Source of the DNA: Eledone cirrhosa
Lineage: Eukaryota
Reading direction: 5' to 3'
Assembly: GCA_964016885.1 (NCBI GenBank)
Contig: OZ024752.1
Coordinates: 31,930,001 to 31,994,000 of the forward strand
DNA length: 64,000 nt
The notes below the pieces were generated by a model. The model was not told the DNA's origin. It did not search any database and was given only the letters and a program-made list of their open reading frames with translations. Positions 1,818 to 63,678 of this stretch are shown one piece after another; within the stretch, counting starts at the first letter, position 1, and each line of letters opens with the position of its first letter. Made by a program: the position numbers and the translations under genes.

Positions 1818-1912
1818 AAATATTTGCTCTACGGTTCTTATATATTTGATATATATTTTCCTTATCGAGCCCTCTTTGGATTTTAGTCTTCAATTTTATT
1901 ATTATTACTATA
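1818..1912 (+). mobile_element. Solo tail of fold-back family H (also 27957-28032, 36036-36123; inverted at 25115-25215, 57849-57935)
   Basis: Recurrent TTGCTCTACGG...CCTTATCGAGCCCTCTTTGGATTTTAGTCTTCAA...TATTATTACTA followed by (TA)n. Confidence 0.8.
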
Positions 1913-2580
1913 CTAATATATATATATATATATATACATATATATACTAATATATATATATATATACATATATATACTAATATATATATATATATATATA
2001 TATATATATATATATATATATATATATATATATATATACTGATATATATATATATTTATATATATGCATATATATACTAATATATATATATATTTATATA
2101 TATGCATATATATATATATATATACATATATATATGCATATATATATATATATATACATATATATATGCATATATATATATATATATACATATATATATA
2201 TATATATATATATATATATATATATATATATACATATATATATATATATATATACATATATATATATATATATATATATATATATATATTTATATATACA
2301 TATATATATACATATATATATATATTTATATATACATATATATATATATTTATATATACATATACATATATATATATATATTTATATATACATATATATA
2401 TACATATATATACATATACATATATATATTTATATATACATATATATATATATATATATACATATATATACATATATATACATATATATATATATATATA
2501 TATATATATATACATATATATACATATATATATATATATATATATATATATATATATATATATATATATATATATACATA
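1912..2580. repeat. (TA)n/(TACA) microsatellite array
   Basis: Direct reading. Confidence 0.95.
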
Positions 2581-2622
2581 CATAATATATAAGAACAAAA
2601 GATGGTTAAAAGAGTTCCATGT

Positions 2623-2689
2623 ATTTTATTATGCGCATTTCAAAAACAAATATCATCATGCAATAATATTTGTTTTCATCAGATAAAAC
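2623..2689 (-). ncRNA. Type I hammerhead ribozyme (family A)
   Basis: GTTTTAT-CTGATGA-AAACAAATATT..ATATTTGTTTTT-GAAA-TGCGCA-TA-ATAAAAT. Confidence 0.8.
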
Positions 2690-3675
2690 AGGAAGACATG
2701 ATATGACGGTTAAAAAACACTTGTGGATAGTTCAGTTTTAAATCAACATATGAAAAGTAGTTTTAGATTGATGTGTGATATTGGGAAAAATATTTTATTT
2801 AGAGGGGGGGGGGAGGATGAAAAAGAGGAAGAGATGAGTAAAAAGTGGAGAGGAAGGAGTATAATGAGGAAGGATGAGATAGGAGGAGAGATGAGTGATA
2901 GAGAGAGAGAGATTTTATAACTGAGAAAGATATATTGTTTTACATAGAGAGGTTGAAAACCGTTGGAAGATAATGTATAAATTAAAAGAATTTGAAAATT
3001 AACGAAGAGAAAAATAATGTAAAGTTAAGGTTCGTATATTGAGGGGTTTGATAATATGTGCGATGAAAAATAAAATGTTAATATGTATTGAGAATAATAA
3101 TATTTAAGGTTTAATAATATGTGCGATGTTAAGAAAATGTTGATATGTATTATTAAAAGGAATAACAGGTTATTTAAGTAAGGAAATATTGAGATGAGCA
3201 TGAATGAGTTAGATGAAAGGGAGAAAAGAATAATGAATTGAGGATGAATAATCTAACGTCAAAAAAATGTGTATATGTTTACGAAGGATTTTTACAAGGT
3301 GATATAGAGTAAGAGTGTATTGTATTATGTAATAATTGATTCTATGTTAGGCAAGGGTGAGAAAAGGTACATATTAGGGGTTAGACATTAAAAGAAGAAG
3401 AGAAGAAAGGGAAGTGATAAATAGGGGCGATGTAGAATGAGTAACAAGTATTATAGAATGTATAATAACCTTAGAAATAAGGTAGAAAGATGGGTATATT
3501 TTTTAAAGAAGTGTATATATATATATATGTGCCTTTGAGAAAAAGATTCAAAATTGATAAAGAATTGATTTTAGCTGTATACTTTGTGAAATGTTTTATG
3601 GAATTTATGCAAGCAGATAAAAACAAGTCAGTGCGTCTATTTAAGTGTTTTTTAACCTTCATATCATGTCTTCCT

Positions 3676-3744
3676 GTTTTATCTGATGAAAACACAAATA
3701 TTATTGCATGATGATAATTGTTTTTGAAATGCGCATAATAAAAT
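3676..3744 (+). ncRNA. Type I hammerhead ribozyme (family A)
   Basis: GTTTTAT-CTGATGA-AAACA...TGTTTTT-GAAA-TGCGCA-TA-ATAAAAT. Confidence 0.8.
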
Positions 3745-3870
3745 ACATGGAACTCTTTTAACCATCTTTTGTTCTTATATATTATGTATACTCCAGTCCT
3801 ACAAACTGTAGAGTGCTTCTTATCCGATATCTGCATTGCTTTATTGTACTACAATAAAACTCACCTCCTA

Positions 3871-59907: not shown

Positions 59908-59958
59908 GGCTTCCTGATGATTTCTCCCGAATGAAACAGTTCTAGTCCTGTAGAAGCC
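59908..59958 (+). ncRNA. Type I hammerhead ribozyme, intact (family C; element 59900-60042)
   Basis: GGCTTC-CTGATGA-TTTC-TCCC-GAAT-GAAA-CAG-TTCTAGTC-CTG-TA-GAAGCC. Confidence 0.88.
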
Positions 59959-60829
59959 ATTTCTATATTAAATATTTATACTCTGCTATGTATTGAGTAC
60001 CTTACTTACTGTGGTTTGCCCCGATTGAACCCGGGATAAACTTTATATATATATATTACATAATGCATAAAACCATTTATCAATATCTAATGTAGACAAG
60101 AAACGTTATCACCATTATCATAGTGAATACTTACCTATCTTGTGATTCCATTAAAAAGTTCATTGATCCCCGCCGACATCTTATTTTACTTTTACATAAT
60201 TCTATATTTTCATGAACATTTAAGTCTTCTTGATTATTTTTTAAAAAATGAAGCATTCAGATAAATAAAGAATCAACTGGAATATTAGACAAATCCAATA
60301 TGGAGGCTGTTATATAATTACTGAGAAGATAACAAATTTTATATTAGAATATGTTTTCTTTTTTATTCAAATGTGATACAAGAAAAGCATCATTCGGGTA
60401 TCTTTAAAAAGCCAACAATTATGCGACAATACAAGAATTCTATTTCTATTTCTTTAAGACATGGATTTGTTGAAAATAAAGTTCCATTAGAAAATTTGAT
60501 ATCAATTGAAGTTAATGGTGTTAGCATTGTTTACAGACACCATCTTGTATTATGCCACGTTTTGTCTGATTGAGTGTTTGTGTTTGGAGAGGGGTTGATT
60601 TTAAAATACAGTAAGGAAAAATATTGCCATGTGAGTGATAGTTAAAAATAGGGTTTGGTACGACTGAGTGACCGAGTTATATTGAAGCATAAGGATATTT
60701 ATTGCCCTTTTTAATAGAAGGGAATAGGATATCATCGGTATTATATTATCCCCAACGACATTCTGAAAACAGAAACATTACAAAGCTATATATACACATT
60801 GAGTACATAAAGGTGTCAAAGGTACGTAT

Positions 60830-60995
60830 TTCCCAATGCACAATAAACCCAGTGGAAGTTGGTGCACAAGGATTTGTCACAGCTTCCATGCACCAACTAC
60901 CAGGTCAGCTTAGAACCAAAAGTCAGAAAAGAACAGAGACGGCTGTGGAAAACTCAATGTGGCTTTGGTTAAAAAGGAATGACAACTGGAACTAA
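60830..60995 (+). pseudogene. C-terminal fragment of a restriction-like-endonuclease non-LTR retrotransposon (HERO-like)
   Basis: PVEVGAQGFVTASMHQL...ENSMWLWLKRNDNW resembles the P.EVG.RGF...S.WLW.KR terminus. Confidence 0.6.
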
Positions 60996-61226
60996 GCTAT
61001 GTGACATCAAGTCACGAACATTGATTAAACTAACAATGCACATAGATGTGAAGTGTTAGTTCCACCGGCGGTCTTTGTGACTGAGGGGTGTAAACCAGAG
61101 GAATAAGCCAGACTGAGGCGTGTAAACCACAGGAATAAGCCATAAAATTACCGGATATCCGGCTCAAGGAGAAAACAGGAGAACACTTGCCAAAAATTAA
61201 GAAATTGCGAAAATGAATACAATATA

Positions 61227-61324
61227 TAGGGTGTCCCAAAAATGTATATACACTTTGATTACCTGCACAGGCAATATTTATTAGAATGGTGTTGAATTGT
61301 GTATACAATTTTTTGGACATCCTG
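61227..61324. mobile_element. Tc1/mariner-type MITE remnant
   Basis: TIRs (T/C)AGGGTGTCCCAAAAATGTATA and TATACAATTTTTTGGACATCCTG, flanked by TA on both sides. Confidence 0.7.
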
Positions 61325-63118
61325 TATTTATATATTTACATATATGTAAAATACTCCATTAGATATTAGCATGATAAACATTGGCGATAGCAGAATATTA
61401 TATCTATATTATATTTTACTATCGTCAATGTTAACTTTACCTTTCATCCTTACGGGGTCGATAAAATAAAGTACCAGTAATGCACTGGGGTATTTGATGG
61501 CCTTGTGCCAAAAGTAGAAACAATTATTTCTGTATAATAGAAATGTAACAGCCGTGTTTTGAATGTTAAACTTTACGAAGATATCCTTATTTACATTTTT
61601 TCAATAGACGACATTTAACCATGTATGTGTCTAACGAAGGGTATGCATGTGAGTGTGTATGTGAAGGCTTCTCTGCTCTCTTGAGTTCAAATCTCGCCGA
61701 GGTTAACTTTGCCTCTCGTCCATTGAAGGTCGATAAAAAAGTACTAGTCTCATACTGGGTTGATTCATCGTTTATATCACTTTACCACTTCCATGTTCGC
61801 ACTCTCTCTCTATACGTCTCGGGAAGAAATCTGCTGTATTCAGACATGGAGAGGAGAAGGGCACCACCAGGTTTGAAATTAGCCAAGAAACACCGTATGT
61901 CAATACAGTCCCCCTACAATTCCTCCAGGAGTTACGGGACCTTGCATGCATAAATGCGCGTCACTAGCGATTGTATGCGTGTGAATATGTACATTCCCAT
62001 GAGTGTGCGTAGCCAGTCGCGTTTGTTTGATTTTCCCCTTGTACTATTTATCTATGGTTTGGCAATATCGGTAGAGCGTCAGACACCATGCTTTGCAGCA
62101 TAGAGTTATGGCCCTTTGTGTTCTGAGTTAAAATCCGCCGACGTTAACTTTGCCTTTCATCCTTACGGGGTCGATAAAATAAAGTACCAGTAATGCACTG
62201 GGATAATCGCTGGCCTTGTGCCAAAAGTAGAAACACTATTTATCGCTCACTTCAATATATAAACTCAATATCTTCACACTATAACTATACGCAATATGTT
62301 TACTGAATATATTTACTCTCCTACGTTACTTTAATTACTACTCCAAGTCAACTCGTAACTGTGCAGCAAATCATTTCTCAAGCTAGTCATGCTAATGGAA
62401 GTAAATCTATTCCACATGTCACCACAATAAATGAAGCTTATCTTTCTGCATCCTTGTTTTACTTTCGCCCTCTCGTCATACGATATAAAGCGTGACGTCT
62501 GACACCAGACAAACAAACCAACCATTCCATTGCCATAGACATATACATATGTGCGCGTGTGTGTGTGTGGTGGTGGTGGGGGGGTCAGAGAGACTTACTT
62601 GCTATATTTATGTGGTTCATTAAATTTCAAATCACGCGAGGTTAAATTGTTCGTTGCTATCGTCTATTTATTTCTACAATTTAAAAAAAATCACCATACA
62701 CTCAGACACACGCGCACACACACACATACTTAGACACACGCACATACATACATATATATAAATATATATATATATATATATATATATATATATATATATA
62801 TATATATATATGTAATGCTTCCAATGTTTCTTTATCTTCTTTATGTTTATTTTGCCTCGAGCTGGCCTTCCTTTTTTAATTTTATTTCATTTCTTTTTCT
62901 TTTTATTCAAATATTCACTTATCTCTGTATATACTGTTTGTTGTCGTTGTTGTTGTTGTTTTATGGGCGAGTTCTCAACTGTGATAATTATTAGATACTT
63001 CCCCCATGTTGTCATAGCTTACTAGCTCTATACTGATGTTTAAATTGATTAGGTAAATAAAAATAAAGAAATATATATGTATATATATATATATATATAT
63101 ATATATATATATATATAT

Positions 63119-63678
63119 ATATAAAGAATGAATAATAACAGGTAGACATCATAATAAGGTAATTTATTCCGTGTGCTTACAAATGTTTCCACGGTGGTAC
63201 TACAGCCTAGTTATGCTATGTGCAAATTTACAACTATTTGCAGAACTCAAATATCCAATGCCGTGACCACTGTTTCCTCAGAGCAGAATCTGCTCTGAGG
63301 AAACAGTGGTCACAGCATTGGATATTTGATGCTCTGAGGAAACAGTGGTCACAGCATTGGATATTTGATGCTCTGAGGAAACAGTGGTCACAGCATTGGA
63401 TATTTGAGTTCTGCAAATAGTTGTAAATTTGCACATAGCATAACTAGGCTGTAGTACCACCGTGGAAACATTTGTAAGCACACGGAATAAATTACCTTTT
63501 TATGATGTCTACCTGTTATTATTCATTCTTTATATACACTCCGGAATACAGAAGGATCAGGAACTAAGTTTCTTCAACAATTCTTCCATAACTCGTAGAG
63601 TAACCTCTTACCGTACGTCAACCATATCCAGTGTAGTAATTAACCATTACTACATCTTGGATAATCCTATACCTAATA
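63119..63678 (+). mobile_element. Fold-back mini-element, family F, with internal 39 bp triplication and tail
   Basis: Arms 63119-63286 and 63290-63535; 3 x 39 bp at 63291-63407; tail 63536-63678. Confidence 0.85.

Follow-up and report, generated by a model that had tools for sequence, protein, structure and literature searches.

The window analysed here is a 64,000-nucleotide (nt) stretch of the Eledone cirrhosa genome (assembly GCA_964016885.1, contig OZ024752.1, positions 31,930,001 to 31,994,000, forward strand), and its subject is a short hairpin carried by Penelope-like retroelements of the Hydra clade and by the small insertions related to them. The leaders of the coding elements follow the order hammerhead, hairpin 1, spacer, hairpin 2 and AUG; the hairpins have a covarying upper stem, insertions end at two positions, and a TA-rich stretch lies about 4 nt upstream. 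Taken together with what is known of related elements, this anatomy indicates that the leader hairpin likely binds the reverse transcriptase (RT), and that the cut (TA)n target would prime on the UA-rich stretch just 5' of it.

Fold-Back Insertions and Their Tails

The window is AT-rich, with about 46% low-complexity sequence, and is dense in (TA)n tracts that house small hammerhead-bearing insertions. By self-BLAST and extension, 17 local fold-backs were identified, and all 17 are one-sided: the first arm joins the target directly (usually a microsatellite), and the second continues as a tail. An inverted copy with a one-sided tail is a layout already known for Penelope-like elements (Craig et al. 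2021, PMC8557442).

A first-pass annotation of the window had proposed that an RCTC...GAGY motif opens these tails, usually 0-7 nt after the inverted arm ends. The letters it named are present at all 11 coordinate pairs that it cited, and the positional link was recovered over a slightly wider range, with the motif beginning 0-12 nt past the arm in 11 of the 17 fold-backs, which represent 8 of 12 families (distances of 0, 0, 1, 2, 4, 5, 5, 5, 7, 9 and 12 nt); at 1826, 12778, 56320 and 57551 there is no inverted arm. For a random non-repeat position the corresponding chance is 0.025, giving a binomial value of 7e-11 for a motif that was defined on the same data. Variants occur in three further fold-back tails (46450, 25437 and 27718), and nothing motif-like was found in three of the 17 (7793, 12288 and 16595).

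The carriers of the motif had been regarded as many unrelated families of hammerhead elements. Pairwise comparison of the 13 window families yielded matches in only 3 of 78 pairs, all of 13-18 nt and attributable to low-complexity sequence or to the motif itself, and the families are better read as diverged relatives that retain this signal alone than as unrelated. Of the 13 families, only A, E, F and G have an intact upstream hammerhead core, and family C has a one-letter variant of it.

The Bulged Hairpin and Its Covariation

In register, the motif opens with RCUC and a pyrimidine whose partner is a purine, continues through an upper stem and loop that vary, and closes on the 3' side with a 2-nt bulge (UH) followed by GAGY, so that a 4-base-pair basal stem is separated by the bulge from a covarying upper stem. 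This register fits 11 of the 13 window families (A, B, C, D, E, G, H, I, J, L and O), families F and K not being cleanly matched, and free folding returns the same bulged stem for both family B hairpins (B1 and B2) and for H, J, L and O. Most coding loci have G-C as the first basal pair and most window families A-U, while three hairpins have U-A.

Covariation was assessed on 75 hairpins from 39 families, anchored only on CTC, GAG and the 3' context; because this anchor itself sets three basal pairs and skews the 3' context, these are not counted as evidence. At the 2-nt register the pair above the bulge is formed in 71 of 75 hairpins (48 C-G, 19 U-A), against 4, 8 and 15% at registers of 0, 1 and 3 nt, and permutation gave p = 0.0002 for this pair and the next two. 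On the open reading frame (ORF) tree with 28 hairpin-1 tips, at least seven switches between C-G and U-A occurred, with two wobble states. Hairpins of mixed length (53 in total) could not be aligned with MAFFT, and a model was therefore built from 10 equal-length hairpins. For these, RNAalifold returned the same bulged structure, 95% of cells pair against 81 ± 2.7 after shuffling (none of 500 shuffles as high), and the upper stems contain three G-U or U-G wobbles and no A-C. The covariation first claimed for the RCTC/GAGY stem is real, but most of it lies above a 2-nt bulge that had gone unnoticed.

Applied to the window, the model from these 10 non-window hairpins returned as its top 12 matches the tail hairpins of families A, D, E, G and I together with hairpin 2 of family B; it misses the long-loop hairpins (B1, C, H, J and O) and the variants F, K and L. 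Motif frequency was compared with shuffled controls in two forms. The loose motif as first proposed is mildly enriched (126 against 85.7 ± 12.5, maximum 119 in 200 shuffles), and the refined bulged form occurs 27 times in non-repeat window sequence against 8.2 ± 3.1 (maximum 16 in 200 shuffles), an enrichment that is not independent in that this form was itself defined on the window. Rfam gave no match at E 0.05 in eight coding loci, and the window matches listed (150 of 484) all fell below the gathering score and were mostly microRNA models on repeats.

The Host Element

Family G connects the hairpin to a coding element. Its fold-back (53148-56060) contains hammerhead cores at 53254 (minus strand) and 55874 (plus strand), both flanked by (TA)n, and a C-terminal ORF fragment (54701-55522, minus strand) whose orientation matches that of the hammerhead in its copy. 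The fragment comprises the end of the thumb, a CxCX5C linker and part of a GIY-YIG domain, and is broken near its end. An HMMER search with it recovered 5695 relatives, the full-length ones of about 700-760 amino acids (aa); a word-indexed protein search found no relative among 1790 longer candidates, and Pfam names only one of six full-length homologues, weakly, as RVT_1. The CxCX5C linker before the C-terminal GIY-YIG is invariant in 18 aligned proteins. Full-length homologues have RW(R/K) at the N-terminus and DK(T/S) in place of DKG, a part that the 5'-truncated window copy lacks, and the 700-760 aa proteins, encoded by a single short ORF, carry CxxC and CxH around a conserved E and N, before which the window copy is broken. 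Hammerhead cores, found by pattern, are present in most coding loci.

RWK-type and DKT motifs, CxCX5C, and CxxC with CxH are features by which the Hydra clade is defined in section 11 of PMC8557442, where its members are described as carrying hammerheads and inserting in (TA)n; one homologue cluster is named from Apostichopus japonicus, a host listed for that clade. By these motifs, rather than by placement in a reference RT tree, family G is assigned as a truncated Hydra-type Penelope-like element. The only window match to Hydra-type proteins is at 54761-55516, in this family; the remaining families, assigned by the shared hairpin alone, are putative Hydra derivatives.

The hairpin had been put forward as a shared structure that fixes where a Penelope-like RT/GIY-YIG complex binds or primes. 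It is not general to Penelope-like elements and tracks the Hydra clade: it is missing from the Neptune-type tails of the window and from the template drawn for PAc, a Poseidon element (Frangieh et al. 2024, PMC11167929). The idea that every Penelope-like clade has the motif was rejected. A twin-hairpin pattern encountered in viral contigs (120 stretches, none encoding a Hydra-type protein) was treated as chance, and no Neptune-type relative was found in those contigs.

Twin Hairpins in the Leaders of Coding Elements

From a scan of metagenome contigs, 77 loci were kept (from the best 80 of 216 confirmed), and the 72 reaching an ORF end were used. Leader counts refer to the 43 loci with an ORF start and at least 150 nt upstream, which form 35 families at less than 80% identity. 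The hairpin pattern defined on the window occurs at least once in 34 of the 43 leaders and at least twice in 24; by family, the numbers are 30 of 35 for one or more and 22 of 35 for two. As controls, the antisense strand gave 1 of 43 and ORF windows 11 of 385, and the maxima over 100 shuffles were 6 (once or more) and 2 (twice). The order within the leader is fixed: from the hammerhead core a median of 80 nt leads to hairpin 1, a spacer with a median of 42 nt to hairpin 2, and a median of 24 nt to the AUG, the two hairpins lying 55-74 nt (about 65) apart from start to start.

Published consensus sequences in the supplement of PMC8557442 carry the same signal. Hydra-1_Ajap starts 2 nt before hairpin 1 and holds both hairpins, Hydra-2_Amil and the record preceding Hydra-1_Crog have hairpin 1 near the 3' end, and Hydra-1_Amil and Hydra-1_Crog contain variant hairpins. 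Two side observations concern individual loci: in the leaders of L035 and L036, one branch switched the first hairpin pair to U-A, with the 3' context changed alongside, and at L001:2133-2300 a Neptune-like protein fragment lies upstream of the Hydra-type element.

Copy Ends and Family B Junctions

Comparison of 3' copy ends with full leaders produced 33 rows, of which 17 were kept after 14 contig ends, one tandem run-on and one repeated flank had been dropped. Thirteen of the 17 ends lie 2-12 nt before a hairpin, 11 of them within 2-6 nt; eight of the 13 belong to hairpin 2 and five to hairpin 1. Two contigs excluded from these counts, L046 and L060, stop 3 and 2 nt before a hairpin, as expected if assembly fails at a (TA)n junction. 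After removal of six mis-anchored rows, with one hairpin per family and rank (n = 61), a TATA stops exactly 4 nt short of the hairpin in 14 cases, and the 11 nt preceding the hairpin contain TATA or ATAT in 31 of 61, compared with 5 and 1 for two windows lying farther upstream.

Family B allowed both ends to be predicted beforehand. Its insertion (19799-20688) consists of an inverted arm, one full non-coding unit of 592 nt with a longest ATG frame of 65 aa, and a second tail. The hammerhead is decayed, its 3' half lying 99 nt before hairpin 1 and no intact core being present in this copy. Hairpin 1 of the unit (19932-19991) has an A-C mismatch at its first pair; hairpin 2 is at 20097-20113, and hairpin 1 recurs in the repeat copy at 20524-20583, all on the plus strand. 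Reads of four runs were mapped onto one 592-nt unit, and among the loose ends listed, the six whose consensus is pure (AT)n all map to 20088 or 20518, which lie 8 and 5 nt before hairpin 2 and the repeated hairpin 1; the arm of the window copy also ends at 20518. These (AT)n junctions were found in three runs, X1 and X3 (one sample, possibly that from which the window derives) and X21 (255 and 212 reads). X21 is a reduced-representation library whose other loose ends are not (AT)n, and X5 barely covers the unit. The 592-nt tandem joint is also present in the reads, so family B units occur in tandem elsewhere.

As a non-coding passenger, family B fits the layout of non-LTR (long terminal repeat) retrozymes. 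Many such passengers had been envisaged; non-coding status is shown for this family only, and family G proved to be the truncated end of a coding element. Likewise, the hairpin does mark the start of the tail as proposed, but this is only half of the pattern, for it occurs twice and marks both tail ends. Both the covariation and the positional link hold in data independent of the fold-backs, namely the metagenome loci, the copy ends and the family B reads.

Proposed Mechanism and Alternative Explanations

In the mechanism that we propose, the endonuclease would cut both strands of a (TA)n tract. A cassette, made up of the UA-rich stretch, about 4 nt and the hairpin, would seat one RT, and the (TA)n 3' end would anneal to it and prime, as is suggested by the in vitro start sites of PAc (PMC11167929) together with the anatomy described here. 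One target end would prime at cassette 1 and the other at cassette 2, probably by way of a protein dimer. The result would be a head-to-head insertion in which one arm stops before hairpin 1 and the other adds hairpin 1 and the spacer, so that the sequence from one cassette to the other forms the tail. The one-sidedness of all 17 fold-backs and the family B reads, in which the two junctions occur at about the same frequency, are both consistent with an insertion having one end of each kind. Copying in trans would be open to every RNA in which the cassettes are preserved, the 592-nt unit of family B among them. For the complete proposal, a two-cassette RNA ruler in which modules of 25-35 nt (UAUA plus bulged hairpin) seat an RT dimer, prime both (TA)n ends and make the tail and fold-back, with module RNAs, animal retrozymes included, inserted in trans, we consider the chances evenly balanced.

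Several observations weigh against it. The strict pattern is absent from 9 of the 43 leaders and present only once in 10 (among the nine, some have a foreign flank and three carry variants such as a U-A first pair), and the start of the published Hydra-1_Obim consensus gives no clean hairpin match. Four of the 17 copy ends lie away from any hairpin, and about half of the cassettes have no clear TATA. The stability of single hairpins is unremarkable (z from 0.1 to -3.2), and three of the four basal pairs hardly vary and say little on pairing. G-U exceeds A-C by 9 to 8 in the raw data and by 8 to 5 in the cleaned set, and in family B the first pair is A-C in hairpin 1 and in the majority of hairpin 2 copies, so that either strand may be the one that folds. 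Moreover, in a single window most families cannot be told apart as non-autonomous units or truncated ends of coding elements.

The family B mismatch also bears on a reading at the DNA level or on the antisense strand, in which the GIY-YIG endonuclease recognises the hairpin in complementary DNA or an extruded cruciform and resolves the intermediate there: A-C at the first pair would be G-T on the opposite strand. The tail has been ascribed to endonuclease-mediated resolution (PMC8557442), cleavage by the D. virilis endonuclease needs the tail (as cited in PMC11167929), and antisense templates have been argued for (PMC3846280). We nevertheless regard this reading as unlikely: the boundary is the target-joined end, where a primer must start, and the upper-stem wobbles of the 10 equal-length hairpins lean to the sense strand. 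Plain double-stranded inverted half-sites were rejected since loop length varies and the upper stem covaries. A rather improbable alternative is that the hairpins act solely in loading or as a passive obstacle, and that the (TA)n primer sets the start by annealing to whichever unpaired UA-rich stretch is nearest. TA-rich letters at most junctions and a hairpin distance ranging from 0 to 12 nt would suit it; leaders are AT-rich throughout, yet 11 of 17 ends cluster at 2-6 nt, and the fixed CUC/GAG letters and the UH bulge point to specific recognition.

The position of the hairpins, close behind the hammerhead core and close before the AUG, could also reflect a role in translation, transcription or hammerhead folding, with copy ends nearby by neighbourhood only. 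This is very doubtful, given that each hairpin has its own peak of ends and that both are retained in an ORF-less unit with a decayed hammerhead (family B). As for chance matches of two 4-mers in AT-rich repeats, some 86 loose matches are found even in the shuffled window. Independent coding loci and reads agree, however, and the model built on hairpins from other organisms places 12 window tail hairpins first; a chance origin has a negligible probability and was rejected on leader counts, copy ends, (AT)n junctions and model ranking.

Hairpin Copies in the Window

Besides families B and G, whose insertions are described above (hairpin 1 of family G is at 55980-55999, plus strand), hairpins were located in the following families. 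The family A fold-back (2578-3881) has an inverted copy ending in (TA)n at 2578 and a sense copy with a hammerhead core at 3683, an arm end at 3789 and a tail to about 3881; its hairpin 1 (3790-3814, plus) has a UA bulge with C-G above it, and a second copy (47142-47166, minus) lies 7 nt past its arm. Hairpin 1 of family C (1826-1870, plus), with a G-C first pair and a UC bulge, has no inverted arm here; other copies are at 25155-25204 (minus, 2 nt past a fold-back arm) and 36040-36084 (plus). Family D has hairpin 1 at 28170-28193 (plus), with more copies at 30954-30977 (minus), 59450-59473 (plus) and 63840-63863 (plus). For family E it lies at 45876-45894 (plus), 44398-44413 (minus) and 59980-59998 (plus), the last with a hammerhead core 66 nt upstream.

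In family F, hairpin 1 (46678-46697, minus) does not fit the 2-nt bulge register and lies 4 nt past its arm, with a hammerhead core 72 nt upstream. Long upper stems characterise hairpin 1 of family H (63538-63601, plus), 1 nt past the arm, and of family J (12698-12778, minus), the latter with no inverted arm at this copy. An inverted arm is likewise absent at hairpin 1 of family I (56320-56345, plus), where (TA)n ends the tail, and at the family K variant (57551-57571, plus), which has a CC bulge and a weak upper stem. The family L variant (46450-46483, plus), 3 nt past its arm, has a U-G second pair and a UU bulge, and the hairpin of family O (47526-47575, minus) was absent from the first-pass list.

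Two further features of these insertions were observed. The hammerhead cores of families A (3683-3730) and G (55874-55930) have unusually long stem II regions, so that core and hairpin are about 106 nt apart, compared with the more usual distance of about 70-80. The family H fold-back contains three 39-nt direct repeats (63291-63407), which suggests repeated template jumps near the palindrome centre.

Other Elements in the Window

A second GIY-YIG Penelope-like type, which we take to be Neptune-like from its linker, occupies 10082-12346 and has a different tail without the hairpin motif. The same type occurs at 17548-18490, 29047-29448, 34791-34951 and 57212-57501; its 3' end is fixed within an AT-rich word, its tail is conserved, and it may have a clade-specific signal of its own. 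A 462-nt tandem unit (7708-8185 and 16530-17188) has an intact type I hammerhead core at 7927 and 16923; a different possible bulged hairpin stands right at one arm end (16596), and the second fold-back ends elsewhere (7793). The motif is also missing from the tail of a 312-nt tandem unit (49119-49529) whose hammerhead core lies at 49368. In another hammerhead family (1448-1632, 52826-53010 and 28379-28509), two adjacent hairpins precede, rather than follow, its end. Two dispersed repeat families resembling short interspersed elements (SINEs) are unrelated to the hairpin, one at 23415-23808, 37303-37486, 40036-41001 and 61430-62240, the other at 24599-24714, 27771-27953, 46071-46281 and 51663-51817.

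Relation to Known Systems

The elements described here agree with the Hydra clade of PMC8557442 in their short ORF with a C-terminal GIY-YIG, CxCX5C linker, hammerhead, (TA)n targets, inverted copy and one-sided tail. They depart from that account in the signal itself: the word "hairpin" does not occur in its main text, the motif is absent from its section 11, and the tail is explained there by endonuclease resolution. For PAc, in vitro work places RT start sites at the two ends of the tail; its AT-rich target is cut on both strands, and a dimer is predicted for the protein (PMC11167929). AT-rich targets are shared, and under the mechanism proposed here two internal RT starts bounding the tail, both-strand cleavage and a dimer would be as well. 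The PAc starts, however, lie in an AC-rich stem-loop inside the ORF, no repeated signal is described in the available text, and the drawn template has no RCTC/GAGY. The elements described here differ in that a hairpin common to many families is repeated at each of the two starts, within a leader that is non-coding.

The non-LTR retrozymes of animals are tandem units that have no coding capacity and carry a type I hammerhead; Penelope-like proteins have been proposed to mobilise them (Cervera and de la Pena 2020, PMC7229834; Li et al. 2026, 10.64898/2026.07.22.740005). In the available texts of both studies no cis signal for the protein is named, the link being co-occurrence and similarity of the pseudo-LTRs (pLTRs). 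Family B shares the retrozyme layout of a non-coding tandem unit. Small stem-loops that let non-coding RNAs borrow a retrotransposon protein are familiar from pairs of long interspersed elements (LINEs) and SINEs, such as eel UnaL2 and UnaSINE1, and from the R2 3' untranslated region. In these systems a short repeat anneals to the target, and the signals are single and at the RNA 3' end. The hairpin here, unlike those, is doubled and internal and would serve both target ends.

In telomerase RNA, a short primer-annealing stretch lies beside a structured RNA element. A telomere-priming module is known for the endonuclease-less Athena and Coprina elements (PMC8557442, introduction). The present elements resemble both in having a primer-annealing stretch beside structured RNA and related reverse transcriptases; unlike in telomere priming, the primer here would be an internal (TA)n tract that has been cut, and there are two copies of the module. 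The literature searched yielded no description of the motif, subscription papers and Repbase notes lying outside that search. The element class and internal initiation are already known, and the doubled, covarying, cross-species hairpin marking both starts appears to be undescribed.

Implications

How the RT of Penelope-like elements chooses its template, and how the inverted copy and the one-sided tail originate, are left open in the available texts of PMC8557442 and PMC11167929. A doubled hairpin at both starts makes template choice and tail origin testable with a short RNA. In addition, the hairpin is a concrete candidate cis signal for the trans-mobilisation of animal retrozymes, and a marker by which anonymous hammerhead repeats can be assigned to the Hydra clade and element boundaries fixed. 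It also offers a parallel with the sister enzyme telomerase, in which the primer is aligned beside structured RNA. If true, the two-cassette ruler would give this telomerase-related class its first defined code for template recognition.

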